This document shows, in pieces, positions 3,827-58,339 of a stretch of DNA of 58,339 bases. Origin of the DNA: a virus (lineage: Duplodnaviria > Caudoviricetes); IMG/VR virus record IMGVR_UViG_3300017700_000657, positions 1-58,339 of that record, one strand, 5' to 3'. A program made the position numbers and the translations under genes. A model generated the notes under the pieces. The model worked only from the letters and a program-made list of their open reading frames with translations. It was not told where the DNA came from and did not search any database. Each line of letters begins with the position of its first letter. The first letter of the stretch is position 1.

Positions 3827-3847
3827 TCCCTGCGGGGGCAACACACC

Positions 3848-5629: not shown

Positions 5630-5693
5630 CGCGCAACGAACTCACGCTCTCGCTCATCCGCGCCGAGCGCCTAACCATGCCAATCCAAATCCT

Positions 5694-20526: not shown

Positions 20527-20880
20527 TTATGATATTATATTGTTCGGCGAAGAACGGAAGGGCGATCCGTCGAGGCGGTTTCGCGTGAGGTAGTCCGCCG
20601 CGTGATAGGCCATTGCGTTCGTGCGGTCCTGCTTGCGGAGCGCGATAATCATTCGCTTCACCAGCGCGATCAGGTCATCGGCTTGGGTTGCAGCGTCGCG
20701 CAGGCCGAGAATGAATCGCTTCGTCTCGCGTTCACCCTCGTCATCGAGTGCGCCGAGAGCGTCGAGCATTTCTTCTGCGTGGTCAGCTTCGGCGCGGAGC
20801 CAAGCCGCCGAACCAAGCGCTACAGCACAACGCGGCGATCCGTCCTCGCTCGCGGGTTTTGTGGTGGATTCGTTACTCAT
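20527..20880 (-). CDS. Cassette gene, hypothetical protein
   Basis: Starts inside attC 20807-20918; ends SPNNIIS across the entry site. Confidence 0.7.
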   Translation of the reverse strand: MSNESTTKPASEDGSPRCAVALGSAAWLRAEADHAEEMLDALGALDDEGERETKRFILGLRDAATQADDLIALVKRMIIALRKQDRTNAMAYHAADYLTRNRLDGSPFRSSPNNIIS

Positions 20881-20918
20881 TGGAAGTTTGCGCCGCGTGG
20901 CTGACCTTGGTGTTCTCT
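20807..20918 (+). other. attC-like recombination site
   Basis: GCCGAAC-CAAGCGC-TACAGCACAACGCGGCG...CGCCGCGTGGCTGA-CCTTGGT-GTTCTCT. Confidence 0.8.
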
Positions 20919-21256
20919 TCCGGCTGGCGCGATTTCGACTGTGCTATCAGTCGGCCAAGCTGTGCTGCGCATTGCGATTGCACGTCGCCAGCCTGCGAGC
21001 ATACAGCGGCGAGCGCGTGCCTTTCTTTGAGGCGAGCGGATTCGGCCCTCTCGCGCCACCACTCGGCCTTGCGGCTCCATTCACGTTCCAGCGCCTCGGC
21101 TTCCACGACAGGAAGAGAACCAGTCGCTACAGCAGCAACGACCTTGGCTCGGCCTGCGGGTTCGGGCGGGGCGAGTTCGCGCGTGGCTTCCTCACGTCCT
21201 GCCTTTCGACCGCGTTTGTATGCTTCTTCAATGAGTATCTCGGCGTTGGTTTTCAT
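20873..21256 (-). CDS. Cassette gene, hypothetical protein (MKTNAEILIEE...)
   Basis: ATG inside attC 21114-21301; ATGA overlap with the upstream ORF. Confidence 0.65.
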   Translation of the reverse strand: MKTNAEILIEEAYKRGRKAGREEATRELAPPEPAGRAKVVAAVATGSLPVVEAEALEREWSRKAEWWRERAESARLKERHALAAVCSQAGDVQSQCAAQLGRLIAQSKSRQPEENTKVSHAAQTSNE

Positions 21257-21301
21257 GCGTCTTTTCTCCGTTCTCGGTCGTGGCTGATCTCCGCGTTCGA
21301 C
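21114..21301 (+). other. attC-like recombination site
   Basis: AGAGAAC-CAGTCGC-TACAGCAGCAACGACC...GGTCGTGGCTGA-TCTCCGC-GTTCGAC. Confidence 0.72.
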
Positions 21302-22446
21302 GGCGCGGCGAAAAACGCTCGGGCAAATTCCATCCTTTTGTGCAGCGCAGCCGAGGGGTTTCCCGCAGCAAATTGCCAAGCTCGCGCCGTATCTACCTCG
21401 CCAAGCAATCGCACCGTGTCTTCGGCTTTTTCTGCACGCTTTGAGCACTCCACAAGACTGTCCTTGATCTGCTCGATCTCTCGGGCGCGCACTTCGAGCT
21501 TGTATTCCATGCGCCCAATAGTCGCGCGATACGCCTCGATTTCGTCCGAGTGTTTTGAGATTTCGATGCAGGCATCGCGGTATTTTGCCGCCCAATCGCT
21601 TTCGTCGAGCCGCTTGTCGGCTTCGCAGGCGTAGTCCTTGAGCGCGGCGCAGATTGCTTCGTGCTGCTGATGCGTCGGGGTTTCTTGCAGCTTGGCCCAT
21701 AGGGTGGAGGCTGCGTCTCTAGCGTCTTTGTCGTATTTGGTTTTCATTCGGAAGAATAGTTTTCGGGTATCAGTGGCGCGCCTTTCGAACGAAGAGAATT
21801 GCGCACAGCACTGTTCCGCGAATTCGACCGAGAACCAGTCATCCGCGCGGAGTTTCCCTTCCATGTCCACCCACCATCCGGGGCGGGCGATTCGGCTGAT
21901 CGTTTGCAGTTCAGCGGCGAGATTATCCGGGCCGAGTCCGCCAGCGAATCCGACCACTTTCGCGGTGTTGGGATGCTGCCACGATTCGGGAGAGATTCCC
22001 CGGCCTCCGCTGCCGTCCACCAGCAGGACATGGTTTTCCGCATCGACCGCCATCAGGTAGCGATTCTGCGGCATGTGCTGGGTGATGATCGTGTGGCTCG
22101 GATAGAGGCGGCAGAGATGCCGCACGTCGGGGATTTCGAGCAGGCCGTTGACCTGGATGCGCTGGAATCCACTGACAGGCAGGCTGCCTTCCATCAGCTT
22201 CGCCCGCGCTCCGCGTCCGCAGACATGCAGTGATGCGCGGCGGAGTTCGAGCGACGTTTCCCGAATCCATTCCCATCGCGGGTATCGGTTCCGGCCTTCT
22301 GGCGTTTCCGTGTAGAGCAGCCCGATTTCGGCATCCAGTTTCGCCAGTGCTGATACGTCCGTCCGCTCATCCGCGCCTGTCACAGTCAAGAACGGTGAAC
22401 AAGTGCCTGATCCCAACGGGGACCGCTCTGTTGTCGAAGTTTTCAT
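21253..22446 (-). CDS. PRAI (TrpF)-like TIM-barrel protein fused in frame to a coiled-coil protein (second start at 21747)
   Basis: VTGAD, LVDGSGGRG, VGFAGGLGPDN and WVDMEGKLR motifs; the distal 164 aa look unrelated. Confidence 0.7.
   Translation of the reverse strand: MKTSTTERSPLGSGTCSPFLTVTGADERTDVSALAKLDAEIGLLYTETPEGRNRYPRWEWIRETSLELRRASLHVCGRGARAKLMEGSLPVSGFQRIQVNGLLEIPDVRHLCRLYPSHTIITQHMPQNRYLMAVDAENHVLLVDGSGGRGISPESWQHPNTAKVVGFAGGLGPDNLAAELQTISRIARPGWWVDMEGKLRADDWFSVEFAEQCCAQFSSFERRATDTRKLFFRMKTKYDKDARDAASTLWAKLQETPTHQQHEAICAALKDYACEADKRLDESDWAAKYRDACIEISKHSDEIEAYRATIGRMEYKLEVRAREIEQIKDSLVECSKRAEKAEDTVRLLGEVDTARAWQFAAGNPSAALHKRMEFARAFFAAPSNAEISHDRERRKDA
21784..21819 (+). other. Collapsed attC remnant
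   Basis: TTCGAAC...GTTCCGC only 36 bp long; CGCGCCTTTCGAAC is near-complementary to cassette start GTTCGACGGCGCG at 21295. Confidence 0.45.
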
Positions 22447-22513
22447 TTTGATAGGTAGCTGTGTGAGTATTCAACGCTCGCTCTCGTCCCCGTGGGATAG
22501 GCTGGCGTTAGAG
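22394..22513 (+). other. attC-like recombination site
   Basis: GGTGAAC-AAGT-GCCT(G)ATCCCA(A)CGGGGAC...GTCCCCGTGGGATAGGC-TGGC-GTTAGAG; two extrahelical bases on the left arm. Confidence 0.85.
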
Positions 22514-22915
22514 TGCCCTGATTTTGCCATGCAGTCGCGCCCGCACAGACCCGCAGGCGAGCATCATTTCCGGGTAGTCGAGCTTGTAGATTGGCGCGAT
22601 TTTGTAGAGCGCCCACGCTGCCGGGTTGCGGACGTTCCCAGCTTCGAGTTGCTCGATGTAGCGCGCTTCGACGCCGCTTTTGTTTGCCACTTCGGCCGGC
22701 GTGAGTCCGGTGAGTTCACGCGCAACGCGCATCACGGTTGCAAACGTGAGCCCCGAGTCTTCGAGGGGCACCCTAACCCCGGCATCACAGCCAACGCGCC
22801 TGACTGAGCCTGCGAATGCGGACAGGGCGCGTCCGCTCGCTGCCTTTTCGGCGTCGGTTTGGTCTTGGAGTGCGGAGTCCAATTTGCGGAGGTCGCTGAG
22901 GATTTGATGTCTCAT
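22508..22915 (-). CDS. Cassette gene, XRE-family HTH regulator
   Basis: ARELTGLTPAEVANKSGVEARYIEQLEAG...NP; stop is the TAA of TAAC. Confidence 0.8.
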   Translation of the reverse strand: MRHQILSDLRKLDSALQDQTDAEKAASGRALSAFAGSVRRVGCDAGVRVPLEDSGLTFATVMRVARELTGLTPAEVANKSGVEARYIEQLEAGNVRNPAAWALYKIAPIYKLDYPEMMLACGSVRARLHGKIRAL

Positions 22916-22963
22916 GGGTTTGCTTCTGCGCTCTGGGCGCGTTGCTGACTGCCAATGTTCGCC
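22771..22963 (+). other. attC-like recombination site
   Basis: CCCTAAC-CCCGGCA-TCACAGCCAACGCGCC...GGCGCGTTGCTGA-CTGCCAAT-GTTCGCC. Confidence 0.75.
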
Positions 22964-23241
22964 CAATCAAGTGAGCGCGTCTCAGTTCCACACCAAGGGC
23001 AGAAATTCACGGCGGGAAGTTCGCACCCAAAACGGATCGAACTTGGATCATCTCCGTATGCGCTGGCGAGCTTTCCGTAAGCCTCATTGTCTGTTCCCGA
23101 TGTGAAGGCGAGCGCCATATCAGAACAGCACACTTGTCTAGGTTCGTATTTGCCGCGCACCCAAACTCGGGCGAACAATGGCGTTGCAGGGTCAACCGCC
23201 TGGGCGGTCTGGTCTTCGATGGTTTCTGGCTTCGGTTTCAT
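22912..23241 (-). CDS. Cassette gene, small Cys-rich (zinc-ribbon-like) protein
   Basis: CC...FCPWCG motif; starts inside attC 23170-23302. Confidence 0.7.
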   Translation of the reverse strand: MKPKPETIEDQTAQAVDPATPLFARVWVRGKYEPRQVCCSDMALAFTSGTDNEAYGKLASAYGDDPSSIRFGCELPAVNFCPWCGTETRSLDWANIGSQQRAQSAEANP

Positions 23242-23302
23242 CTTTTGGTTTTCAGAGTTGATTGGTTTCTAGTCGGCGGTGCCCTGAACTTTGGCGTTGG
23301 GC
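23170..23302 (+). other. attC-like recombination site
   Basis: GGCGAAC-AATGGCG-TT(G)CAGGGTCAACCGCC...GGCGGTGCCCTGAA-CTTTGGC-GTTGGGC; R' fits GTTRRRY. Confidence 0.85.
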
Positions 23303-34028: not shown

Positions 34029-34250
34029 TTACTCGTGCGGATCGTGCGCGCATTCGCTTAGGCAATTGTCAGACCAACACGAAGCGCGCTGTTGTGCATC
34101 GTAGGCGGCATCTAATCTGACGGCGCCGGCCGGACCGTCGCGACGGCGCTCCTCTGCTGTGATAGCGTCAACGCGCGCCCAGTTGCTTGACTCGATTGCG
34201 CGGTTATAGGCGCGCTCCAATTGGCGCCAAGTTGCGGTTGTAAGGTTCAT
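34029..34250 (-). CDS. Hypothetical early protein
   Basis: 73 aa; coupled to the upstream gene. Confidence 0.55.
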   Translation of the reverse strand: MNLTTATWRQLERAYNRAIESSNWARVDAITAEERRRDGPAGAVRLDAAYDAQQRASCWSDNCLSECAHDPHE

Positions 34251-34639
34251 TGCGGAAGGATTGCGGCGAGCGTTGCACGATATTGGCCGGCGTTGTCATA
34301 GGCGCCGCGCACCATTGGCGCGGGTTTGTGATATGCGGCCAGAATTGCCCGATAGGATTCAGAACCTATGACGTGTGCCAGCTCCTTTCCCTTGTGGTGC
34401 ACCGTCAGGTTGAGGGTGTCGAAAACGGGCCGGCGCAGAAAGTCAAAACAGACGACAGTAGAGGCGAAGTTAGTGCGATAAAAGCCGCCGTCTTTCAGTG
34501 AAGCTGTGAGAATGCCGCACGTTTCGCTGTGTTCAGTGTGAAAGGTGAAGCTGGACACTTCGCGCCAGTGGCGAAGCAACCAGCCGAGGTTTTTGACTTC
34601 GCGCGCGATGCCCGCGGAATTTTGAACGATTGTTTTCAT
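34247..34639 (-). CDS. Hypothetical early protein (MKTIVQNS...)
   Basis: VKNLGWLLRH motif; follows the CACAG-repeat leader. Confidence 0.7.
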   Translation of the reverse strand: MKTIVQNSAGIAREVKNLGWLLRHWREVSSFTFHTEHSETCGILTASLKDGGFYRTNFASTVVCFDFLRRPVFDTLNLTVHHKGKELAHVIGSESYRAILAAYHKPAPMVRGAYDNAGQYRATLAAILPQ

Positions 34640-34682
34640 GGCTGTAAATTGTGCTGTGCGTTGGCTGTGCTGTGAACTGTGC

Positions 34683-35069
34683 TTAACTGCCATAAATTTG
34701 CCCGTCATCGCCCACGTATAGGTTGAAATCGCCCCACACTTCGCTTGCCGCACTTAGGCGCATAAATACAGTCCGCAATTCGTGACTGCCTGACACTTCA
34801 TCCCAGAAGCCCGATCCGTGTCCGTTGCGGTTGAGCCAAAAGAGGAAACCCGCGCGGCTTGCCTCAATATCGGCCGAGGCTAGGTCTTCCGCGTTGTCAG
34901 CCTGAAACGCTGCGCAGTCCTCCGCCATGCGTTGCAAGGTTTCGGGTGCAATATCGGATTCGCTATAATTAGAATCAAGCGGATCACCGCCCTGTTCGTT
35001 TGAGTTGTCAGTGGAAGACCAGAGAGCTGCGCCGATGTAAGAGCGCGTAAAGGTGTCGAGTGTTTTCAT
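34683..35069 (-). CDS. Hypothetical acidic early protein
   Basis: YIGAALWSS...FWLNRNGHGSGFWD motif. Confidence 0.75.
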   Translation of the reverse strand: MKTLDTFTRSYIGAALWSSTDNSNEQGGDPLDSNYSESDIAPETLQRMAEDCAAFQADNAEDLASADIEASRAGFLFWLNRNGHGSGFWDEVSGSHELRTVFMRLSAASEVWGDFNLYVGDDGQIYGS

Positions 35070-35248
35070 GCGTTGGCCTCCGTTGCGATGTTTTCAACGC
35101 AAACGAGATTGCACGATAGGGCGCCCGCGCGCAGTTCGTCGTCGTCATTATCCCATTTGATTTTGACGAACGAGTTTTTCGAGTGCGCCATGGGTGACGC
35201 GTCGCCTAGGTTTGCGATAAATTGCCAGATCGGTTGATTCGTTTTCAT
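35066..35248 (-). CDS. Hypothetical early protein
   Basis: 60 aa; first gene of the leftward cluster. Confidence 0.5.
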   Translation of the reverse strand: MKTNQPIWQFIANLGDASPMAHSKNSFVKIKWDNDDDELRAGALSCNLVCVENIATEANA

Positions 35249-36183: not shown

Positions 36184-36573
36184 TCTTTTCTGTGTGTAAG
36201 CTTTTTTCATGCTCCGCGCGCAACGTGCTGTGCGTTACGCGCGCCGTCCTATGCCCTTTTTAGGCGATTTGACGGCCCGCAGGTAGTGGAGTGCCCGTTT
36301 TGCGCGGAAAGGGCAGAATGGGCAGGAATTTCCTAGGGGTTTTCCGCAATTGGCGTTATCTATCGCTAACGGTCGTTAGTGAACGGCGCAAACAGGCTAG
36401 TTTTGCGACGATCCTCGCGTTTTGGGCCGAACCGGCAGAGGGCGGGGGCGGGGGCCTGGGTTTCGAGCAAAGACAGAAACGCCAATACATCCGCCCCCAT
36501 AATAAAAATTTTGCAGTAAGCCTTCCGTCCGCAAAACTCAGCCCCGTTTTTTAAAAAATAAAAAACAGTTTCA

Positions 36574-36733
36574 ATTCATTCACGAAACTACCGTGAACTC
36601 ACGATTCATTTTTGGCCTCCTCGTTTTTGTTCACGCAACCTCGATTTCCGTTGACACGGAAAATCGAGGGTTTCGTGAATAAAATCTCACGCATCCACGA
36701 ATGTGAACGAAAAACATGGATTCGTGAATGAAT
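36574..36733. repeat. Nested inverted repeats with TCACG units (res-site or origin candidate)
   Basis: ATTCATTCACGAA (36574) pairs with TTCGTGAATGAAT (36721); internal hairpin at ~36630-36679. Confidence 0.75.
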
Positions 36734-36787
36734 GAGTAAATTATTTCTTGACGTTACTTACATACGCCGTTTACTGATGCGTAAATT

Positions 36788-37417
36788 ATGAAACTAGCTA
36801 TTTACACGAGGGTATCTACGGAAGGTCAAAGCCTTGAACCCCAGCTCATGGAACTCCGCGCAGCCGCCAAACAGCGCGGCCTGACAGTTCTCCATGAGAT
36901 CACCGATGTCATCAGCGGCTCCAAAGACAGCCGCACCGGACTTGACCGCCTGCTTGCCATGGTTGAAGCCCGCCAGATTGACGCCATCATGGCCGTTAAA
37001 ATTGACCGCATCGCGCGCAGTCTCAGCAACTTCGTCCGCATCTGCGCCCTGCTCACTGCTAACCGCGTGGCGCTCATCATCCCCGGTCAGGGTATCGACA
37101 CCTCAAACGCCAATCCGTGCGGTGAACTTCAGCTTTCTATTTTGGCTGCAATCGCCCAGTTTGAGAGGTCGCTGATTCAGGAGCGCACGCGCGCTGGCTT
37201 GGCGGTGGCCCGCAGCAATGGCAAGGTGCTTGGCAGGCCGTCCAAAACCATGGTGCCGGAGACGGATCGCACGGCCATCATTCAGGCTTGGCGCCGTAGC
37301 GGCGATGGCTACGCAAAACTGGCTCAACTGCTGGGCAATGTCAGCACGGCGACGGCGTGGAAATTGGACAAAAAAATGCCGGACAGCAGCGCGGACGTGA
37401 TGGAGGTGGAGGATTAG
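36788..37417 (+). CDS. Small serine recombinase (resolvase/invertase family)
   Basis: YTRVST, DRIARS, AQFERSLIQERTRAGL and LGRP motifs; C-terminal HTH. Confidence 0.95.
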   Translation: MKLAIYTRVSTEGQSLEPQLMELRAAAKQRGLTVLHEITDVISGSKDSRTGLDRLLAMVEARQIDAIMAVKIDRIARSLSNFVRICALLTANRVALIIPGQGIDTSNANPCGELQLSILAAIAQFERSLIQERTRAGLAVARSNGKVLGRPSKTMVPETDRTAIIQAWRRSGDGYAKLAQLLGNVSTATAWKLDKKMPDSSADVMEVED

Positions 37418-39042
37418 ACCGCCAGCCGGTAGAGCCGACGACCGTTCACGTCGCTAATTTCAATGCACCCTTCTTCGCCGAATCGCTGGAGCACGTTGAA
37501 AAAGCTGTTTTGACTCATGGGGATGTTCCCGTTGCTGATGCGATAAAGCTCGGCCAGCGGCTTGCCCGGCTGTTCGCGGGTTGGGAAGATGGTCTTGAAG
37601 GCGCTGAACGGGTATTTCGTCTGGCGCCCGCCCTTTTTCTTTTCGGCTGGCTCGTCCTCGCCCGGACGGGCCACGCTGCGATGCATCTGATACTCCTCGC
37701 TCCACTGGAACGCCGGGGATTTGTCTGGCGGGATCGGGCGACCACGTTGCCTCCCCTCCGCAACCAGCACCGTCACGTCCCCCTCCTTCTTCAGCGTCAA
37801 ATTCGACTCGCTCTTGCGCTCTAGTTGGCTTCCTAGATGCCCGCGACCCTTGTCGGTCTTGTCCTTGGAGGCCGGATTCAGGTGCAAAATGTTCACGATG
37901 GCACAGTCATGCTCGATGGCGGCGCCGTGCAGGCGGGCCACCAGCGCGTTGCTGTCATCCTCGTTGTTGGGGCTGGAAACAAGGTCGGCCACACCGTCAA
38001 CAAACACGCTGTGCACGGCACCGCACTGCTTTTGGGCATGGCGCAGGGCGGCGTGAACAAAGCGCTCGGCTTTTGCGGCCTCCATGCCGGCCAGGCTAAA
38101 GCTCAGGAACCACTTGGGTGGCGCTTGCAGACCGGCCCGACGCAGGATGGACAGCACCAATGCCTGCCAGTCGTAGGTGCTCTGCTCAGTGTCAAAGTGC
38201 AGGACGGCGGCGTGGCCATAGTTCGGGCCTTTAACGCCCAGCGTGTCAGCGCTACTGGTGCCGGGCAGCATCGTTGCCGCGATCATGGCGGCGATAAAGC
38301 TGCTTTTGCCCGCCTTGGACTGGGCGTAGATCGTGGTCAGGTTGCCGCGCGTGCAGATGCCGATGTCGGCGATGGTGTAGATTGCCGGCGGTCTTGGCAG
38401 CAGCTTCTTGGGGTCAAACACCCGCTCCATCAGGTCGGACGGGGATGAGGCGCTGTCGGTGATATGCTTCAGGCGTGCCTGCTGTCCTTCCAGCATCCGC
38501 TCGGCGTCGTCGGCCTGGCATTTGAACACCTCTTCCATCGCCTGTAACGCGGCCCCGTGCGCCCGGCGCAGCAATTCGGCTCCCCGGATGGACCGGACCA
38601 GCATTTTTACGTGCGCCGTCGTGGCGGATTGCTTCTCAAGCGCCAGTATCTCCGGCATGATCGGCAGGCCATCAAACGCCTCGTGGCCCTTTAGCCGATG
38701 GATCAGGCTGATGGTGCTGACCGGCTCGCGTTCATCGTTAAGCTCGCAGGCGGCGCTAAAAACAGCCGCCAGCCTTGGGGACGTGAAGCTGGATGTGGTC
38801 AGGCCAGCGTCGGCGCACTTTGACAGCACTTCCGCGCTGTCCACAAATAGTGCGGCAATCAGGTTTTCCTCCGCGTCGGCGTCGGATGGCAGTTCACGGG
38901 ACAGCACCGTTTCACCGATGCGGGCCGGGCGGGCGGACTCGAATGAGTTGGGCGGCGGCGTGAAGCGGTTGGGCTGCGTGCCGTTGCGCTCGGCGTCGGC
39001 ACTGGCTACGCCGTCATCATCGAGGTCCAGCAGGCGGTTCAT
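37414..39042 (-). CDS. Replicative helicase-like protein (DnaB N-terminal domain plus AAA_25/RecA-type ATPase)
   Basis: LPSDADAEENLI; Walker A AQSKAGKS; FDTEQ, VDGVAD, ILHLN, RGHLGS. Confidence 0.85.
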   Translation of the reverse strand: MNRLLDLDDDGVASADAERNGTQPNRFTPPPNSFESARPARIGETVLSRELPSDADAEENLIAALFVDSAEVLSKCADAGLTTSSFTSPRLAAVFSAACELNDEREPVSTISLIHRLKGHEAFDGLPIMPEILALEKQSATTAHVKMLVRSIRGAELLRRAHGAALQAMEEVFKCQADDAERMLEGQQARLKHITDSASSPSDLMERVFDPKKLLPRPPAIYTIADIGICTRGNLTTIYAQSKAGKSSFIAAMIAATMLPGTSSADTLGVKGPNYGHAAVLHFDTEQSTYDWQALVLSILRRAGLQAPPKWFLSFSLAGMEAAKAERFVHAALRHAQKQCGAVHSVFVDGVADLVSSPNNEDDSNALVARLHGAAIEHDCAIVNILHLNPASKDKTDKGRGHLGSQLERKSESNLTLKKEGDVTVLVAEGRQRGRPIPPDKSPAFQWSEEYQMHRSVARPGEDEPAEKKKGGRQTKYPFSAFKTIFPTREQPGKPLAELYRISNGNIPMSQNSFFNVLQRFGEEGCIEISDVNGRRLYRLAV

Positions 39043-48847: not shown

Positions 48848-49410
48848 AATACAGCTACGACGCAACATCGCTGCCGGGTGAGGAATGGCGCCCCGTTGTT
48901 GGATACGAGGGATACTACGAAGTGAGCAGCATGGGTCGCGTGAAATCCATGGCGCGAACCATTGACGCATCTGATGGGTCGCAACGCCGCTATCGCACGA
49001 AAATAATGACGCCGAAGAGCCGCGGAGAATACCTGTTCACAATCTTGAGCAAGGGACTGAGATACGAGAAGATTTCCGTTGCGCGCGAAGTCGCGAAGGC
49101 GTTTCACGGCCCGCCAAAGCCGCGTGAAGAAGTGAACCACAAAGACGGAAATAAGCACAACAACTCATCGCAAAACCTTGAGTGGATGACCAAGAGCGAG
49201 AACGCCACGCACAGCCATCGCGTCCTGCTGAAAAACGTGCGCGAGCAGAAATACAACCACAAGCTGACCGACGAAAATGTCTTACTTGGCCGAAGGCTAT
49301 TTGCGGCCGGTCAGGCCACCTACTCATCGCTTGGCCGCATGTTCGGAACAAGCCACGTAGCCATTCGCAATGCAATTGTTGGTAAGTCGTGGAAGACGCT
49401 CAATGGCTAA
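48844..49410 (+). CDS. NUMOD4-HNH homing endonuclease
   Basis: EEWRPVVGYEGYYEVSSMGRVKS; VNHKDGNKHNN...NLEW. Confidence 0.92.
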   Translation: MKYSYDATSLPGEEWRPVVGYEGYYEVSSMGRVKSMARTIDASDGSQRRYRTKIMTPKSRGEYLFTILSKGLRYEKISVAREVAKAFHGPPKPREEVNHKDGNKHNNSSQNLEWMTKSENATHSHRVLLKNVREQKYNHKLTDENVLLGRRLFAAGQATYSSLGRMFGTSHVAIRNAIVGKSWKTLNG

Positions 49411-51103
49411 AAAAATCCACTTCAGCGACGAATACCAGCCCCGTTTCGGTGTTCCTCATCGCGCTCCGCTAACTCCCGAAGAACTCGCCGGGTTAAGCGA
49501 GGAGAGACTGCGGGAATACATGCACAGTCGGCAGCTCATTGAGACCGAGAGCGCCAAAAACCCCGTGGGCTGGGGATGGACGCTTCCATCATGGGAGCAG
49601 GTTTTTGACCAATGGAAAAATTATAACGTCCACATTGTCCTAGGCGGGAACCAAAGCTCGAAGACGACGCTCGGCGCTCGCATGTCCGTCTGGGCTGCGT
49701 GCGAGATTCCAGAGGCAGAGGTCTACAACTTCCACATCAGCGACAAGCGCTCAATTGACGACCAACAGCGGTTTATCTACGAGAACTTGCCGGATTGGCT
49801 GAAGAACATGCCCACAAAAAAGGGCATCGCCCACAGCCTGCAATACACGCAGAAGAACGGATTCACTGACGGTATCGCCATCATGCCTCCCGTGAAAGGC
49901 TACCGCCGAGGAGGCTCAATTAAGTTTTATAATTATGCGCAGTTTTCCCAGAACGACCAAATAATTGAGGGCATTAAGGCGAATTTCGTTTGGGCTGATG
50001 AGAAAATCCCCGTGGATTTATTTGAGACACTGCGCATGGGCCGTCTAGGCACCTACCACGGACGTATGCTAATCACTTATACGGTCGTTGACGGATGGAA
50101 CGATGTCGTGGAACGCATTTTGTCGCGCACGCGAACACTCAAGACCCGTTACTGCAATCACCCTAAAATTATGGCAAACCTGCCTATCATGCAGGAAAGC
50201 CTATCCGTTGGATCGTGCTGTATTCACTACGCATGGACAGAGGACAATCCATTCGCGGACTTCAAGGAGTTTATGAAGCTGTATGGCAACGAGTCCAGAG
50301 AGGTGATCTTGGCTCGCGCATATGGGATACCAACCAAGTCAGTTACCTCCGCCTTCCCCCTCTTCAGCAAAGAATACGTCAAAGACGGCGGCAACGTGGT
50401 CAAACACGAAGACCTCCCATGGCTCAAAACCCGCAAAAACGCCAAGGGCCAAGACGTGCCGTATCCAGTCACGTTCTACATGGCCCTCGACCCCGCTGGC
50501 TCCAAAGCGTGGTTCATGGTATGGGTCGCCATTGACGCCGCCAATACGTGGTGGGTCTACCGCGAGTCACCCGAGAACGAGGAATGGGCCTTGCCCGGCA
50601 ACAAGCCCGGCCCGGCGACGACGCCGCGCATCCACGGCATCAAAGCCTACGTCGAGCACATCACGACCGCCGAGAGCGGCCCGGACGGCGACCGCAACAT
50701 CTACGAGCGCATCATCGACCCGCGCATGGGTGCCGCGGAGCGCCAGTCGCAGGACGGGGCTACGACGATCATCAGCGAACTGGACGATGCCGGGCTCACG
50801 TTCATCCCGGCTCCGGCCGCATCGTCCGAGGCTAACAAGGGCGAGATCGAGGACGGTATCCAGCTTATCAATAACCTGCTGGCCTACAAAACGGACCAGC
50901 CGATTGATGCGCTTAACCGGCCACGGATTTACGTCAGCGACAGGTGCCAGAACCTGATCTACGCTTTGCAGGAATACACGGGCAAATTGGGGGCGACGGA
51001 GGCTACGAAAGACCCGATTGATTGCTGTCGCTACCTCCGCAAAGCCAATTGCGAGTTCGTGCCTTTCGTGAAAGATAACGGCAGTCGGACGGGGGTATAT
51101 TAA
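49403..51103 (+). CDS. terL: Terminase large subunit
   Basis: GGNQSSKT (Walker A), VWADE (Walker B), ALDP, IIDP and KDPIDCCRY (nuclease domain). Confidence 0.9.
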   Translation: MAKKIHFSDEYQPRFGVPHRAPLTPEELAGLSEERLREYMHSRQLIETESAKNPVGWGWTLPSWEQVFDQWKNYNVHIVLGGNQSSKTTLGARMSVWAACEIPEAEVYNFHISDKRSIDDQQRFIYENLPDWLKNMPTKKGIAHSLQYTQKNGFTDGIAIMPPVKGYRRGGSIKFYNYAQFSQNDQIIEGIKANFVWADEKIPVDLFETLRMGRLGTYHGRMLITYTVVDGWNDVVERILSRTRTLKTRYCNHPKIMANLPIMQESLSVGSCCIHYAWTEDNPFADFKEFMKLYGNESREVILARAYGIPTKSVTSAFPLFSKEYVKDGGNVVKHEDLPWLKTRKNAKGQDVPYPVTFYMALDPAGSKAWFMVWVAIDAANTWWVYRESPENEEWALPGNKPGPATTPRIHGIKAYVEHITTAESGPDGDRNIYERIIDPRMGAAERQSQDGATTIISELDDAGLTFIPAPAASSEANKGEIEDGIQLINNLLAYKTDQPIDALNRPRIYVSDRCQNLIYALQEYTGKLGATEATKDPIDCCRYLRKANCEFVPFVKDNGSRTGVY

Positions 51104-51128: not shown

Positions 51129-51170
51129 AAAGCGCCGATGTGCGTGGGTTGGGGCGTGAAAAAATCCAGC

Positions 51171-51461
51171 ATGAAAAAATCCAGACTCAAGGGACGCCGT
51201 ATGTGGGCGACGCAAAGAACCTACAAGGACGACGGATTTTCCTGTCACACAACGAAAGCCGACGCCCTTTATTACTCATACAAAGAAGACCCCAAGCCCA
51301 TCCTCGTCGCCGTCATCCCGCTCGATGACGCAGACCGCATGATCTCGAAAGCGAGAGCTGCATACACGCACAACGGCAGCGAGTTCACCCACGAGAACAT
51401 GCGCGCCGCCCTCGTCGCCATCGGCGTGCTGCCCAAGCAGCGCAAGAAAGGCCGCAAATGA
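51171..51461 (+). CDS. Hypothetical protein
   Basis: 96 aa ORF. Confidence 0.6.
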   Translation: MKKSRLKGRRMWATQRTYKDDGFSCHTTKADALYYSYKEDPKPILVAVIPLDDADRMISKARAAYTHNGSEFTHENMRAALVAIGVLPKQRKKGRK

Positions 51462-51613
51462 GCGCCCCATCCATCGCTATCTGCGCGCTCGTCGCGCTTA
51501 TCGTCGGCCTGTTTACCGGTGCAGAGAACCCGGACGACGCTCGCATCATCGGCGCCATAGTGACGGCCGCAGTTCTCGTTCTGGTCGGCGTCTTGATCGG
51601 AGGTGCCCTGTGA
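51458..51613 (+). CDS. Small two-TM membrane protein (51 aa), not in the ORF track
   Basis: MSAPSIAICALVALIVG...; 4-bp overlaps on both sides. Confidence 0.6.
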   Translation: MSAPSIAICALVALIVGLFTGAENPDDARIIGAIVTAAVLVLVGVLIGGAL

Positions 51614-52323
51614 GCGCCCCCGCACAAGTCACCGAGGCGCACCGGAAGCTCGCTAAAAGTATCGGATGCGACCCAGCAAGCGAATACTGCCCGCAGGACG
51701 TGGATGCCGACGCCCAACTCATCGCCGACAGCGAGGCGAAGGCGGTCGAGCACGCAACGAATCGTATGCACGAAGAGGAATTGAAACCGTGCATGGACGC
51801 TTGCGACCAGCTCCGCGCCGAGGTGGAGCGGTTGAAAGCGGCACAGCCACAATCCGCATACTCGCTTAACCCCGATGACCCGGCAGTGGGCGACGTTTGC
51901 TCAATGGCGCAAAGCAACGCGCGGTTGCTAGAATCCGCCCGCGACGAACTCGTGAACTGCGCCAAACGCGCCGAGACAGCCGAGCGCGAGGTGGGGCGGC
52001 TGAAGGCATCGGTATTTGAGAACGCCAATCGAGCGGACGAAGAAAAATGCGCACGACTCGCGGCTGAAAATGAATCCAAGCGCCTGCGTAAAGCCGGGAC
52101 CGATACGTGGGGCGAACTTAGGACAGAAATACACGCGCTGTCGGCCCGCGCCGAACGCGCCGAGGCTAAACTCGCCAAGGAGCGGGCGCGGTTCAAGGCG
52201 CTACGCAAAGCCGTCGATCCTTTTGTCGCCGTCGTGTTTGTAAATCCCGAGGACAAGAAATTCCGTGAGGCGGCGGCAAAGATCGAAGCCATCGACGCCG
52301 CCATAAAGGAGGACAAATTATGA
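51610..52323 (+). CDS. Coiled-coil hypothetical protein
   Basis: 237 aa; LRAEVERLK and RAERAEA segments. Confidence 0.7.
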   Translation: MSAPAQVTEAHRKLAKSIGCDPASEYCPQDVDADAQLIADSEAKAVEHATNRMHEEELKPCMDACDQLRAEVERLKAAQPQSAYSLNPDDPAVGDVCSMAQSNARLLESARDELVNCAKRAETAEREVGRLKASVFENANRADEEKCARLAAENESKRLRKAGTDTWGELRTEIHALSARAERAEAKLAKERARFKALRKAVDPFVAVVFVNPEDKKFREAAAKIEAIDAAIKEDKL

Positions 52324-52780: not shown

Positions 52781-53155
52781 AAGCATGGCCATGTCCGGCA
52801 TATCTACCTGCGCATTTGACACGATCCCCGCGATAAAGCGCACATTCGGCAACCGCCGAAACTGGCATCGTTTCTTGGCCATAGCCGATGCCATGGCGGC
52901 GGAGCTTGCTCTGCGTAGGTGGAGCACAACGGGCACTAATTTATGAAATACCTATTCCTGATCATCCGTCACATATTTCCGCGCAAGAGATGGGTCACGA
53001 TAGAGGCATACAGCCTCACTTTTGAAGGCAAAATTTACGGAAGGCGATTCATCCAGCGCGACCAATTCGGAAACCTTCGCCACTTTAACTCGAAGGTTTA
53101 GCCCTCCACTTGCATCTTGCCAACGCCCCGCGCTGCATTACGCGTGACTGTCAAG

Positions 53156-55273
53156 ATGTCATCCTTCGCGGGCACAACCCAAGTCAACGGCCAAAACTCC
53201 GACGCCGGCCTGCAACTGGCGCCCGAGGGCAACGACGGTCCAGATCACGCCCTCCTTTCGCGCACGTTCAACACCACGATTGCGAATCTCCAAGGCTTTA
53301 CGGACCAGTGCCAGGAGAACTACAACACGCGTTACGCCCTCTGGTCAGGCCAGAGCGCTGACGGCAAGAAGCACGCCCGCGAGGGACAGAAGATTGACCC
53401 GACGCCATGGGACGGTGCGAGCGATCTTCAGGTTTTCCTCACCGACGAGGCCATTATTTCCAAGGTGGCGATGCTCTGGATCGCGTTCCTGCGGGCCGGT
53501 ATCACCGCGACGCCAGTCGAGGGCAACGACATTAAGCGAGCCAAGACCGTATCCAACTTCATGCGCTGGCTCGTCCAGACGCAAATCCCCGAGGTAAACC
53601 GCGAGGTGGAGCTGCTCGCCAACTACATCCAAGAAATGGGTGTCGGCGCGATGGGCGTATTTTGGGAAGAGACGCAGGAAAAGATTTTGCAGAACGTCAC
53701 GCTGGAGATGCTTCAAGAACAGTTCCCGACACTAGACATGCAGGCGCTCCTTTACAGCGACGACCTGATGGACGATGCCGTGGCCATCTTCACCGAGATT
53801 TACGGCTGCACCGCGAGCAAGGCCCGCAAGATGGTGAAGGAGCTGCGCGTGAAGCAGGAAACGACCGTTCCGACGTTGGGCCGCAAGAAAAGCTACCCGG
53901 TCCTGCGCGCGTTCAACCTGAATCAGAACCTTTTCATCCCGAACTACACGACCGACGCCGAAACCGCATCGGACATGTTCCGGGTTGAGTATTACACCGC
54001 AGAGCAGCTCCGCGCCTTCGTGAATACGGCAGGCTGGGACAAGGCGTGGGTTGAGGCCGCGATCAAGACCTGCAAGGGCAAGCAGATCACGCAGACACAG
54101 AACGAATACAACCAGCCGATTTCACGCTCGTTCATGTATCAGCAGGAGAACTTCACCGACCTGATCGGCGTAGTCTATGCCTACCAGCGCCTGTCCGACG
54201 AGGATGGATACACCGGCCTTTACCTCACGATCTTCAATCCTGGCCTGCCCCCTGACGGCGAGCAGGACGGTTATGCCAAGTTTGGCTTGCTCGGCTACGC
54301 GGACGGAGCCTACCCGTTCGTCATCTTCCGCCGCGAGCACCTATCCCGCAAGCTGCACGACACGCGCGGCATTCCTGAGCCGGGCAAGCCGCTCCAGCAG
54401 CAGATCAAGGTCCACAAGGACAGCCTGATCGACGCCGCATCGCTGGCCATTTGCCCGCCCATGATGTATCCGCAGGGCCGTCCTCCGCTGCGGTGGGGCG
54501 CTGGCGCCAGGGTGCCGGAGCGTCGGCCGGGCGAGTATCACTTTGCTGACCGCCCCGCCTACGACCCCAGCACGGAAAAGAGCGAGGCTGCGCTGAAGGC
54601 CGACTTCAACCAATACCTCGGCTTCGTTTCAGCCGAGACCGATCCGACGTTCGCCGGTTACAAGAACCAGAAGGAGGCCGAGAGCTTCATGGCTGGATTC
54701 AGCAAGGTTTTCGCCAAGGTCTGGAGCCGCTACAAGCAATACGGCAGCGAAGCCGTTTACTTCCGCGTCGTTGGTTTGAAGCAGGCCGATCCGGTTGAGT
54801 TCAACAAGGGACAGGACGACGAGGAGTTTGATTTCCGTCTCACGTTTGACATCCAGAGCATGAACCCCGAGGTGCAGCAGCAAAAGCTGAAGGCGCTCGC
54901 TGAGGTCGCCGGCATGTTCGACAAGTATGGACAAATCGACTACGGCGAGGTCATCCAGCTTGCGGTGCAGACCATCGACCCGAACTGGGCTGAACTCGTG
55001 GTGCTACCGAAGGAGACCGGATCACAGAAGACCGTGAACGAGACGCACACGATGCTGGCGCAGGTATTCTCAGGCGTAGACCGCGACATCGACTTGAACG
55101 CGCCGCCTGACCTCGTGATGGCCACGATTCAGAATTACGGTCAGCAGCCGGACGTGCAGCAGCGGTATGCACAGGATGAGGCGTTCCGTGGCCGACTGGA
55201 CAAGATTGTTAAGCAGACCCAGATGCAAATTTCGCAGAACGAAAATAAGCGCATCGGAGTCTACGGTGCCTAG
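53156..55273 (+). CDS. Portal protein
   Basis: 705 aa between terL and scaffold; PWDGASD and TRGIPE motifs. Confidence 0.85.
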   Translation: MSSFAGTTQVNGQNSDAGLQLAPEGNDGPDHALLSRTFNTTIANLQGFTDQCQENYNTRYALWSGQSADGKKHAREGQKIDPTPWDGASDLQVFLTDEAIISKVAMLWIAFLRAGITATPVEGNDIKRAKTVSNFMRWLVQTQIPEVNREVELLANYIQEMGVGAMGVFWEETQEKILQNVTLEMLQEQFPTLDMQALLYSDDLMDDAVAIFTEIYGCTASKARKMVKELRVKQETTVPTLGRKKSYPVLRAFNLNQNLFIPNYTTDAETASDMFRVEYYTAEQLRAFVNTAGWDKAWVEAAIKTCKGKQITQTQNEYNQPISRSFMYQQENFTDLIGVVYAYQRLSDEDGYTGLYLTIFNPGLPPDGEQDGYAKFGLLGYADGAYPFVIFRREHLSRKLHDTRGIPEPGKPLQQQIKVHKDSLIDAASLAICPPMMYPQGRPPLRWGAGARVPERRPGEYHFADRPAYDPSTEKSEAALKADFNQYLGFVSAETDPTFAGYKNQKEAESFMAGFSKVFAKVWSRYKQYGSEAVYFRVVGLKQADPVEFNKGQDDEEFDFRLTFDIQSMNPEVQQQKLKALAEVAGMFDKYGQIDYGEVIQLAVQTIDPNWAELVVLPKETGSQKTVNETHTMLAQVFSGVDRDIDLNAPPDLVMATIQNYGQQPDVQQRYAQDEAFRGRLDKIVKQTQMQISQNENKRIGVYGA

Positions 55274-55313
55274 TCTTGCTTGACACCCCGCTTGGCGAGT
55301 GCCCACATAGGGC

Positions 55314-55583
55314 ATGACCCTAGCCGATCAACAACTCGCGCGCCAAAAGCGCATTCAAGCCTCGCTCATCGGCCTCGCTGCCGATACCCGTTTCCGCGAC
55401 TTCATGGAAACCGTGCGCGAGTGCCGTGAAGGCGCGCTGCTCAACCTTGTGGACGGTGCCGTGATCCAGAACGAGCGCGCCTCACTGGCCTGCACGGGCG
55501 AAATCGCCGCCTATATGGCGCTCATTCGCACGTATGACGAGGCGGTGGCGCAGGCGGCGCTGGCGAGGGAGGAGAAGGCGTAA
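55314..55583 (+). CDS. Small protein after portal
   Basis: 89 aa helical protein in a typical post-portal position. Confidence 0.7.
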   Translation: MTLADQQLARQKRIQASLIGLAADTRFRDFMETVRECREGALLNLVDGAVIQNERASLACTGEIAAYMALIRTYDEAVAQAALAREEKA

Positions 55584-55668
55584 CACTAAAGCTCAGACAC
55601 GAGCGTAGGACCAACCATGAAAACCAAAAAGAGCGCAGCCCGCTCGTTGTCTGTGGCGATTGTTCGGC
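55578..55668 (-). other. attC-like recombination site
   Basis: Plus strand: GCGTAAC-ACTAAAG-CTCAGACACGAGCG...CGCTCG(T)TGTCTG(T)GGCGATT-GTTCGGC. Confidence 0.78.
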
Positions 55669-55946
55669 GCTTCCGATTTCTGCGCGTCGGCGAATACCCA
55701 CGCAAGGGCGACCAATTCCTATACTGCGGAGATTCACCCGGAGAAAAACGCGGCTGGAAGAACGCAGAAGCAAACCTTGTGGCTAAGTGGCGCGGCCCTG
55801 TGCCGTCGTGGTATAAGGGCCGATACCGCCGCCGCGTCGAAAAGAAGGAATCCGCTGAAATGAAAATGGTCCGCGCTCGGCTCGCCGCAACATATCGAGC
55901 CGGATTCGTGGAGCAATTCCGCGTCTTGCCGAACATTAAGGTCTGA
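55617..55946 (+). CDS. Cassette gene, basic hypothetical protein
   Basis: ATG in the attC loop with AGGA upstream; ends LPNIKV in the next attC. Confidence 0.7.
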   Translation: MKTKKSAARSLSVAIVRRFRFLRVGEYPRKGDQFLYCGDSPGEKRGWKNAEANLVAKWRGPVPSWYKGRYRRRVEKKESAEMKMVRARLAATYRAGFVEQFRVLPNIKV

Positions 55947-56021
55947 CATGACGCGCTCTCCCTCACGATCCGAACACCCCGCGGTCGAGTGCGCGGCATT
56001 GTCAGAAGCGTCTGGTTCCAC
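55928..56021 (-). other. attC-like recombination site
   Basis: Plus strand: GCCGAAC-ATTAAGG-TCTGACATGACGCGC...GCGCGGCAT(T)GTCAGA-AGCGTCTG-GTTCCAC. Confidence 0.78.
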
Positions 56022-56038
56022 CTAAACTTTTACCCACT

Positions 56039-56440
56039 ATGGAAACACAAAAACCAACCCCCGATCAAAAACCTACTGCGAGGACAAATCTGAGCCCCGA
56101 GGAGCGCTTTCGCTCCGGGCTATCTCTCGGCTTCATTGCGGGCGTGCTCGCGACCGCAATCGTGCTGCTCTGTTCAGCGTTGCTGGCTTTATTCATAGTT
56201 GAGACCCGCAACGTAAAGACAGAAGCGACTGCCGCAAATACCTCAGCCAAGCCCGTGTTTATCGGAGCTGGCCAGCCAACCCCATTCCACCACTGCATTG
56301 TGCTGGGCGCTGGAGCGGAGCCACAAAAAGATTACGGACTGGTCACCGGTTCACTGACGGGACCGAATTGCGGCAGGATCTGCCACGGGGCAAGACGGTC
56401 GATCTTTTGCCGTCGTGGCCGAAATGAGTGGAACAACTGA
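56039..56440 (+). CDS. Cassette gene, single-TM membrane protein
   Basis: Hydrophobic segment LGFIAGVLATAIVLLCSALLALFIV; ends EWNN across the entry site. Confidence 0.6.
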   Translation: METQKPTPDQKPTARTNLSPEERFRSGLSLGFIAGVLATAIVLLCSALLALFIVETRNVKTEATAANTSAKPVFIGAGQPTPFHHCIVLGAGAEPQKDYGLVTGSLTGPNCGRICHGARRSIFCRRGRNEWNN

Positions 56441-56669
56441 TTCCGCGAACCACTTCGCATATCCAGCCGCGCCCACCCAGCGCGGCTTTTCCATGCCCCA
56501 AAATCGTGCAAAATGCACGATCTACCTCTGATCGCGCGCTATAGCCACGACCATGCAATTTGCACGACTCCGCCATTGACATTGCAAATTGCACGATTAG
56601 TTCAATTGGCCACACGGCAATCCTGCCGCGCGCTAGGATTTAGAAACAGCCCCTTGACGGCTCTAACTC

Positions 56670-57863
56670 ATGCCAACTGAAAATATCGAGGCCACTTCGC
56701 CGGCCGCAAAAACAGGTGATGCGACAGTAAAAGGGTCGGGCAATATCGCGACGGGTCAGGCAGCGGTGCTCCTCATGGCTTCGGCCGAGAAAGCATCGAA
56801 ACAGCCGCCCCGCCAAGCTGCGGAAGATACTGCCCCCGAGGTAATCGCCCCGGACCTTACCCTTGACGAAACTCCGACAGCAGAAGCTCCAGCAGCTTCC
56901 GAAGAGACCGCCCCCGCCGAAGAAGCCACGCCCACCGCCGAGACGACAGAGGCCGAGGACAAGGCAACCGAGGAAGAGGCCGATTCTGTTCCTTCTCAGA
57001 CAATTTCATTCACTCCCGAGCAACAAAAGCTGCTCAACAAGCGCATCGGCAAGGAAGTGGCGAAAACCAAGGCAATTGAGGCCAAGATGGCGGAACAAGC
57101 CGCCAAACTGGCCGAACTTGAGGCCAAGATCGCCGCTCCCGTCACCCCGCAAGCTCCCGTAGTCGTAGCCCCCACGCCCAACATGCCGTTGGGCGACGTA
57201 ATGGACATCGCCAAGCTGGGCGAAATCCAGAACACCGCCAAGGAGGCCGCTCGCTACATTGAGGACGTGCTGGACGACGCCGGTCAGTGGCAGACGATGA
57301 CCGATCCCAAGGACGAGGATAAGCAAATCCGCGTTCACAAGATCGGCGAGGCGTTGTTCACTGAACTGGACCTGAAGCGCAAGTTACGCGAGGCCCGGCG
57401 CACACTGGAGGATCACATCCCCCAACGCGCGCAGTTCATCGCCGCCAAGCAGCAGATCACCAAGCAGGCTCACGAACGCTTCCCGTTCCTGACCGACAAG
57501 CAGAGTGCCGAGTATCAGATGGCCGAACAGGGCCGTCGCAATCCGCAGTATGCCGCCCTTATGGCGATGCCAAATGCGGAATGGATACTGGGCGTGCTGG
57601 TCAAAGGCGCGAAGGCGGTCGAAGCAGAGGACGCGGCCAAGGCCGCTCCCGCCAAGAAGCCAGCCCCGGTTGTCAAGCCAAAGCCAGCAGCGGATCAAAC
57701 CGCCGTCTCGGCCAGTGGCGCAGCGGCACGGGCGCCTATCGGTTCAGCCGAGCGGCAGCAGATTGCGGCGGAGTCAGCGAAATTGTCGGCGAAGGGCGGG
57801 ATTACTTCGGATGATGCGGTTGGGCTTCTTCTCAAAAGCTCACAGTTACGCAAATCTCGATAA
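56670..57863 (+). CDS. Capsid scaffolding protein
   Basis: Acidic disordered N-terminus, KRIGK coiled coil, Pro/Ala tail; directly before the capsid gene. Confidence 0.8.
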   Translation: MPTENIEATSPAAKTGDATVKGSGNIATGQAAVLLMASAEKASKQPPRQAAEDTAPEVIAPDLTLDETPTAEAPAASEETAPAEEATPTAETTEAEDKATEEEADSVPSQTISFTPEQQKLLNKRIGKEVAKTKAIEAKMAEQAAKLAELEAKIAAPVTPQAPVVVAPTPNMPLGDVMDIAKLGEIQNTAKEAARYIEDVLDDAGQWQTMTDPKDEDKQIRVHKIGEALFTELDLKRKLREARRTLEDHIPQRAQFIAAKQQITKQAHERFPFLTDKQSAEYQMAEQGRRNPQYAALMAMPNAEWILGVLVKGAKAVEAEDAAKAAPAKKPAPVVKPKPAADQTAVSASGAAARAPIGSAERQQIAAESAKLSAKGGITSDDAVGLLLKSSQLRKSR

Positions 57864-57867
57864 TTCC

Positions 57868-58339
57868 ATGGCCCTAGCCACCTCCTACAACGTCTCCGGT
57901 GACCGCGAAGCGCTCACCAATTTCCTCACCATCCTCGAACCCGAGGACACCCCGAAGACCTCTACGTTTGCAAAAACGACCAAGGTCACGAACACCTACC
58001 AAACCTGGCAGGCCGATACCCTCGCAAATGTTGACTTCGCTGGCGTCCTTGAAGGCGCTGACGTGGCCGCATTCAACAACGAAGCCGCCAACCGCGCCCG
58101 CTTCGGCAACTACATCCAGAAGTTCTGGCGCCCGTGGATGGTCTCGGACCTCCAAGAAGCGTCCGATCCGGCCGGCACTGACGGTGAAGTTGCAAACAGC
58201 AAGGTCAAGGCCATGCGCGAGCTTAAACGCTCCATCGAAGCCGCCGTTGGCTCCGATAACGACATGCAGGCCGATACCGGCCTCGCGCCCTACAAGACCC
58301 GTGGTCTTGGTTCGTGGATTAAGGCCACCGCTCAGACCA
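57868..58339 (+). CDS. Major capsid protein, 5' part (MALATSYNVSGDREALTNFL...)
   Basis: REALTN...PEDTP...WQADTL...EGAD...NYIQKF motifs; open to the window end and continues at the window start. Confidence 0.88.
   Translation, partial: MALATSYNVSGDREALTNFLTILEPEDTPKTSTFAKTTKVTNTYQTWQADTLANVDFAGVLEGADVAAFNNEAANRARFGNYIQKFWRPWMVSDLQEASDPAGTDGEVANSKVKAMRELKRSIEAAVGSDNDMQADTGLAPYKTRGLGSWIKATAQT
58217..58339. repeat. Terminal direct repeat, copy 2
   Basis: Identical to 1-123. Confidence 0.97.

Follow-up and report, generated by a model that had tools for sequence, protein, structure and literature searches.

What DNA lies between the post-portal gene and the putative scaffold gene of the phage IMGVR_UViG_3300017700_000657, and by what route did it come to lie there? 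The record of 58,339 bp is a complete phage genome with direct terminal repeats and an estimated completeness of 100%, and its source is a member of a freshwater phage group; the full record is called the window here, and all coordinates are counted from its first letter. A preliminary description had read positions 55578-56434 as an array of two integron-type gene cassettes bounded by attC sites. Our comparison with related phages leads to a different answer: the segment 55580-56465 is very likely the current filling of an accessory-gene slot, a mosaic module of the moron type, which begins at the post-portal stop codon and reaches to the foot of a conserved terminator-like hairpin.

A variable segment with fixed edges

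The slot is flanked on the left by the post-portal gene (55314..55583, plus strand, 89 aa, TAA stop codon at 55581-55583) and on the right by the gene at the scaffold position (56670..57863, plus strand, 397 aa). Its cargo comprises two open reading frames (ORFs) on the plus strand, orf109 (55617-55946, 109 aa) and orf133 (56039-56440, 133 aa, stop codon at 56438-56440), the latter followed by a non-coding stretch of 229 nt up to the scaffold-position gene. In blastn, the match between the window and G001, the closest complete genome (58,530 bp), ends at 55579 and restarts at 56466, so that the breakpoints 55579/55580 and 56465/56466 delimit a variable cargo segment of 886 bp. In place of these 886 bp, G001 carries 173 bp with an unrelated ORF of 55 aa, between flanks that are 91% (53099-55579) and 96% (56466-58339) identical to those of the window. 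The break against G001 at 55579/55580 bears out the earlier proposal of an insertion at the intact TAA of the upstream gene.

Further relatives were taken as the loci found by searching IMG/VR and JGI metagenomes with the portal and scaffold genes. They comprise clade A, to which the window belongs (scaffold identity of 80% or more), and its sister clade B (portal about 65% identical), which is represented by the rows L009-L012, L015, L031-L034 and L063-L071, several of these being one contig fetched again. By tblastn, orf109 and orf133 were absent from 15 of 15 portal-related loci and from all further loci compared; the portal, post-portal and scaffold genes were present throughout the loci lacking them. 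Within clade A, the distance from the post-portal to the scaffold gene spans 235 to 1,114 bp, and ten contigs display eight cargo states with zero to three ORFs each, namely two ORFs in the window, in L005 and in L003 and L008 (which share one state), one in L002, three in L007, and none in L004, L016 and the pair L006 and L030. Every clade-A cargo ORF lies on the plus strand, and in most cases the stop codon of one ORF overlaps or almost touches the start codon of the next. Two of them, L003 orf70 and L005 orf65, are 68% identical and both occupy the last position before the terminator; the remaining cargo ORFs of the relatives, one or more per contig, are mutually unrelated. Searches of ten cargo ORFs of relatives against Pfam and PHROGs returned one PHROG of unknown function (E 0.008) and nothing else.

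Sites without a cargo ORF are found in L016, L004 and L006/L030 as well as in clade B, where the slot is a constant gap of 120-155 bp. L016 represents an empty site, in which the post-portal stop codon directly adjoins the terminator stem, and in Phage C75C1 a distance of 55 nt separates a small post-portal gene from the gene at the scaffold position. The proposal of foreign, variable cargo between the post-portal and scaffold genes thus holds, the cargo of the window being absent from relatives and replaced or missing at the same place.

The same edges emerge from metagenomic contigs of four runs from four studies, in which both flanks are covered; the cargo itself has no cover in the contigs of these four runs, and the evidence consists of joints and loose ends. 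In contigs of runs X2 and X5, position 55570 is linked to 56465 by 27 letters; in run X4, 263 other letters stand between 55581 and 56477. The loose ends, at 55574-55585 and 56464-56465, continue into several other sequences. Across all comparisons, breakpoints fall within 55570-55585 on the left and 56464-56477 on the right. The interval therefore varies among relatives, as had been suggested, and its left edge had been placed correctly; the right edge lies at 56465/56466, about 31 nt past the proposed 56434. Variation at other boundaries, which had been named as evidence against a cassette array, is what these right-hand breakpoints display. Likewise, the empty site predicted for an array, GGCGTAAC|AACTGATT, was not seen in any relative, and where a site is in fact empty or nearly so, it is the terminator stem to which the stop codon is linked.

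The right edge is marked by a terminator-like hairpin on the plus strand (56465..56491; AGCCGCGC-7 nt-GCGCGGCT, then TTTTCC), whose stability (z -5.77) was reached by 0 of 200 shuffled sequences. The hairpin at 56465-56491 is kept in 7 of 8 aligned clade-A sequences, and at its place L006 (2960-2995; also L030) has a different GC-rich hairpin with a T-run. Such conservation of structure without conservation of sequence fits the reading as a terminator. Because it is also present in empty sites, we assign this intrinsic-terminator-like element to the backbone rather than to the cargo.

Beyond the hairpin lie three operator-like palindromes of the type TCGTGCA-N3-TGCACGA (56502..56598), the third of which overlaps a TTGACA box. 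The window holds no other such sites (5 strand-matches at 3 sites versus 1.04 expected), and the palindromes with their regulatory region are invariant in 8 of 8 aligned clade-A sequences. They are probably a binding site for a putative regulator of the head genes. The exact operator 19-mer also occurs in five IMG/VR contigs that have no homolog of the portal, post-portal or scaffold gene.

Turnover of the cargo

From this arrangement we infer how the slot might work, including its co-transcription with the portal gene and the route of recombination. The slot would be the last position of the portal transcription unit, ahead of the regulated promoter region of the scaffold-capsid operon, so that small genes in sense orientation would be read through from the portal transcript, which would end at the backbone terminator. 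Insertions would survive at this position since the essential flanking genes are left undisturbed, and the cargo itself appears to be non-essential because it is absent in relatives. New DNA may enter through illegitimate or microhomology-level recombination and be filtered by selection, and whole fillings may be swapped between co-infecting relatives by homologous recombination in similar flanks, for which the identities of 91% and 96% to G001 would be enough. No dedicated site-specific recombination site or enzyme would take part.

The slot is not an isolated case of variation in this genome. The alignment with G001 covers 71.5% of the window and leaves out 32 segments, each at least 30 bp long, and a search for a shared 7-mer at 64 mosaic boundaries found none beyond chance (observed maximum 5 versus a null mean of 6.1). 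Given this genome-wide mosaicism, the slot can be regarded as one instance of it that calls for no special system.

One sequence does recur at the slot. The AT-rich palindromic linker TTAATTAAGCC (TAATTAAGSC) occurs only there, in 5 of 16 loci compared and twice in two of them (L003 4291-4300, L004 2688-2714, L007 6085-6111, L008 2591-2600 and L016 2114-2123). It is sometimes duplicated 17 nt apart and contains stops in several frames; in L016 the post-portal gene has its stop codon within the linker. The unrelated cargo ORFs L003 orf70 and L007 orf116 both end in a linker-encoded PPLN-stop, L004 holds a gene-less remnant of the linker seen behind the cargo in L003 and L007, and the near-empty contigs of X2 and X5 carry the related letters TTAAT...ATAATTA. 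The linker is absent from the window and from its closest relative, L002. Recombination may make use of the linker as a boundary sequence.

Several observations weigh against an accessory-gene slot that is filled and refilled by general recombination. The recombination route is itself inferred. No promoter belonging to the cargo could be demonstrated, which means that the segment is not a textbook moron of promoter, gene and terminator; a single sigma-70-like site upstream of orf133 (55999-56028) has 9 of 12 matches and is no more than chance would give, with 1 such site found versus 1.6 expected. The homologs of orf109 are known as proteins alone, and orf133 may be no gene at all. The TAATTAAGSC linker recurs at cargo junctions in half of the relatives and hints at a sequence preference, one that is not common to the window. 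Finally, L003 orf70 and L005 orf65 are common to two relatives, so that differential loss is possible for part of the cargo.

A full account by differential loss, in which an ancestor carried a larger gene set and the present states are remnants of deletion, is in our estimate unlikely. The shared last position of these two similar ORFs and the gene-less linker remnant in L004 would suit it. The other cargo ORFs, however, are mutually unrelated, and an ancestor holding them all would have needed a far larger block; clade B and C75C1, the outgroups, are empty, and four further runs brought yet other sequences at the same breakpoints.

A purpose-built landing pad, at which DNA is captured at a fixed point between the stop codon and the terminator foot with the aid of the linker TTAATTAAGCC and of an unrecognised recombination activity acting on it, and whose cargo, the orf109 family and orf133 included, would serve as host-takeover or anti-defence factors, seems to us very unlikely. 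Slightly more doubtful still is a dedicated non-integron mechanism, in which the terminator stem or the linker would be the target of a recombinase or nuclease, or in which the small genes would themselves be mobile. Such a mechanism would account for the tight clustering of the breakpoints in 55570-55585 and 56464-56477 and for the confinement of TAATTAAGSC to the slot, with related letters in X2 and X5, and the genome does encode a small serine recombinase at 36788-37417. The window and L002, however, lack the linker, and selection against hitting the flanking gene or the terminator gives the same clustering. There is no nuclease or recombinase in or beside the slot and no genome-wide boundary motif, and the serine recombinase lies 19 kb away, itself within a segment that is absent from G001.

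Search for attC sites and an integron integrase

The remaining alternative is an integron-like cluster of attC sites lacking an integrase (CALIN), in which two antisense cassettes bounded by attC sites would have arrived through an attI-like entry site at 56434 by means of an integrase supplied by the host. In its favour, the interval is inserted cargo that starts at the upstream stop codon, and an imperfect inverted repeat of 65 nt (55942-56006; arms TCTGACA/TGTCAGA) separates the two cargo ORFs within their 92-nt spacer, with 7-bp arms one base off RYYYAAC and GTTRRRY. Phage CALINs with working attC sites exist, according to the excerpted text of PMC9892861.

As single-stranded DNA, the plus strand of 55942-56006 folds at -18.2 kcal/mol, a value equalled by 2 of 200 shuffles (z -2.76); for the minus strand, on which the attC sites had been claimed, 28 of 200 shuffles did as well (z -1.06). 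In a genome-wide fold scan (plus strand, step 10), 4.3% of 5,826 windows of 81 nt, spread over 120 of 583 bins of 100 bp, matched or exceeded the stability of this hairpin, which is therefore not unusual for this genome. No T-run follows it on either strand. Its arms read GTCTGAC...GTCAGAA and thus have GAC/GTC at the positions of the AAC/GTT of attC, triplets that to our knowledge are invariant in attC sites. On the left, the candidate at 55578-55620 does not fold significantly (z -0.16 and -0.12; 76 and 84 of 200 shuffles as good). Perfect 7-bp end complementarity had been described for both cassettes. None was found for the 350-bp cassette; the other has one perfectly complementary pair, GTTCCAC at 56015 and GTGGAAC at 56428, which chance alone would give in 21% of window pairs of this size.

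The core sites RYYYAAC and GTTRRRY form the attC consensus as given in the excerpts of PMC9892861. On both strands of 55584-56700, neither core was found, and the only core matches within 55400-56700 are at 55439-55445, inside the post-portal gene; the whole window holds 2 spaced core pairs, none complementary at 6 or more of 7 positions. This strict consensus scan has limited sensitivity, since it found the aadA1 attC control and the attC of just 4 of 10 different cassette genes. Taken together with the lack of a fold on the left and the minus-strand z-score, the scan gives no support to two canonical minus-strand attC sites.

Because the strict scan was too insensitive on real cassettes, we built a covariance model, R1. 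It was trained on six attC sites (aadA1, aadA16, aac(6')-Ib4, aac(6')-29a, aac(6')-29b and arr-3) from plasmid R100 and from class-1 integron regions of resistance plasmids, with the pairing of the R and L boxes taken from RNAalifold (15 pairs, 6 with compensatory changes), and was then calibrated. As a positive control, R1 matched 13 of 13 cassette 3' ends in six plasmid loci, and the four held-out attC sites of VIM-2, dfrA5, dfrA27 and a DUF1010 cassette were found at 19.8-38.2 bits (E at most 0.02). Its training sites come from mobile class-1 cassettes alone, yet it generalised to unrelated cassettes. With default filters, R1 gave no match in the window at E up to 10; with filters off, it gave 7 matches of 9-12.4 bits (E 0.85-7.9), none of them in or beside 55578-56434. 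The 17 loci of relatives searched, the whole closest genome included, gave no match either. The covariance search that had been recommended as a check is hence negative at the claimed sites with a working positive control, and as it covers the whole window, it is also negative for the similar array that had been described elsewhere in the genome.

A CALIN has no integrase by definition. In the complete phage genome, there is no match to PF00589 or TIGR02249 at E up to 1, and hence no tyrosine recombinase or integron integrase was detected. By the criterion of PMC9892861, two or more attC sites of a CALIN lie no further than about 3 kb apart; the number of attC calls in the window is zero.

The claimed entry site fares no better. 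Its crossover, 56433/56434, lies within orf133, two codons before the stop codon, and is never a boundary against G001 or in the contigs of the four runs. The entry sequence AACTGATTCC matches in 2 of 117 loci, namely the window itself and an unrelated place in L005, and in no relative at the slot. Hairpins between ORFs were looked for at the cargo junctions of relatives and none was seen. With R1 finding all of its controls and nothing in 55578-56434 or in the relatives, with the invariant triplets replaced and with the breakpoints elsewhere, the locus fails every testable defining feature of the integron/CALIN family, and we regard this alternative as barely credible.

Cargo proteins

For orf109, six homologs were found that are 74-91% identical over 53-89% of the query and have a common core of about 70 aa. 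This family (P0002-P0007) consists of metagenomic proteins only and shows the core LRVGEYPRKGDQF...GWK...RGPVPSWYKGRYRR with variable tails. The protein is very basic (isoelectric point 11.0), its codon score is 0.24, and it has no Pfam, PHROG, NCBIfam or PADLOC match. Judged by these sequence features, orf109 is a real gene family. When the protein and the family alignment were searched against viral contigs and genome contigs, no encoding locus was found. An AlphaFold2 model from the 7-sequence alignment was too poor for a fold search (mean predicted local distance difference test score 60, predicted template-modelling score 0.40).

The coding status of orf133 is probable on the sequence available, though not secure, with a codon score of 0.08 that is similar to that of the antisense frame (0.10). 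Among 5.8 billion clustered proteins its sole match is itself, and among 1.84 billion representatives there is one marginal match (E 2.6e-4); like orf109, it has no family match. A search of the ESM Atlas gave no lead (best feature score 0.83, all template-modelling scores normalised by the query below 0.5). The preliminary description had called one cargo a membrane protein, in agreement with one strongly hydrophobic segment of orf133 at residues about 24-59 (Kyte-Doolittle maximum over 19 residues 2.92), which is predicted to be a single transmembrane segment; orf133 contains 5 Cys. A role in superinfection exclusion, raised at the same time, is pure speculation, with nothing for it and nothing against it, and any function of orf109 or orf133 is likewise a matter of conjecture.

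Relation to known mosaic elements

Morons and mosaic gene swaps in the phages HK97 and HK022 were reportedly described by Juhala et al. in 2000. PMC3029335 uses the word moron for a segment that one genome has and a related one lacks. The slot shares with them its position between genes that are adjacent in related phages, its small genes of unassigned function, its location at a transcription-unit boundary with a terminator behind, and different fillings in different relatives. Unlike morons, its cargo has no demonstrable promoter of its own, and the terminator is that of the backbone. Moreover, the phage has no integrase and is perhaps not temperate, so that the idea of a benefit to the lysogen may not apply.

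The standard account of mosaicism, as far as it is given in the excerpts of PMC3029335, holds that conserved sequences are missing from most mosaic boundaries, a point in favour of illegitimate recombination. Short conserved linker sequences between phage modules are a published concept in the same source. The occurrence of TAATTAAGSC at cargo junctions in 5 of 16 loci resembles this concept, from which the slot differs in that the window and L002 have no linker and the evidence for recombination at the linker is circumstantial.

In a screen of 10,705 genomes, Qi et al. 2023 reported 21 phages with integrons or integron components, 17 of these being CALINs (PMC9892861). The slot is similar to these in having accessory genes in a phage genome, a hairpin between two of them and no integrase nearby. 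It differs from phage CALINs in having no attC sites and in its breakpoints, which lie off the proposed crossovers; in addition, the logic of orientation was reversed in the earlier claim.

The value of this analysis is mainly corrective, in that an integron interpretation assembled from a hairpin, short complementary words and a shared TTGTT does not withstand a covariance search and a comparison with relatives. What remains is an accessory-gene slot with exact edges in the head-gene region, for which at least eight fillings are documented. Such slots offer a practical starting point in the search for small phage proteins with host-directed functions, for which the orf109 family is the most tractable candidate. 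Conceptually, nothing new is added to phage mosaicism.

Genome context and further variable segments

The conserved left backbone begins with the portal gene (53117..55273, plus strand), 718 aa as listed, with an uncertain TTG start. It matches PHROG 332 weakly and, by tblastn, a portal-annotated gene in GenBank phages, and across 15 IMG/VR loci it is 62-97% identical over the best segment. By portal, the nearest GenBank phage is Phage C75C1 with just 33% identity; at the DNA level, blastn of 53100-58339 against GenBank phages gave no match. The large terminase is encoded upstream (49370-51103, plus strand; PHROG 2, E 2.4e-15). The post-portal gene has homologs in every relative that reaches that far and a codon score of 0.66, with no family match in Pfam, PHROG or NCBIfam. 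The scaffold-position gene, the conserved right backbone, is followed by the start of the capsid gene and is 80-99% identical in clade A and about 48-50% identical in clade B. Its putative name comes from gene order alone; in Phage C75C1, the gene at this position sits before the annotated major head protein. Nowhere in the window did an Rfam family reach its gathering score, and 55000-57000 gave just three matches at E up to 10, all at chance level.

The segments of the window without a match in G001 span 30-2,741 bp, the largest being 20555-23295, 3827-5692, 36519-37741, 51165-52322 and 34029-35182, and several mosaic boundaries coincide with start or stop codons. The third of these segments (36519-37741; 1,223 bp), which has no counterpart in G001, holds the small serine recombinase, a protein of 209 aa with a Resolvase domain (E 1.8e-39), which is encoded in the part of the genome with the lowest GC content (0.49). 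As the segment is absent from G001, the recombinase is itself to be seen as accessory cargo, and it is possibly a resolvase, an invertase or part of a small mobile element.

The interval from the portal to the post-portal gene is a second variable slot, which is empty in the window, where it measures 40 nt (55274-55313). Elsewhere it is filled by a 68-aa ORF (L004 2210-2416 and L006 2479-2685, also L030), by an unrelated 70-aa ORF (L005 8198-8410) or, in L012 (4365-5222), by a 285-aa ORF that is HNH-like by eye and has no Pfam match. Near this second slot, contigs of runs X4 and X5 carry 188 and 1,154 extra letters, respectively.

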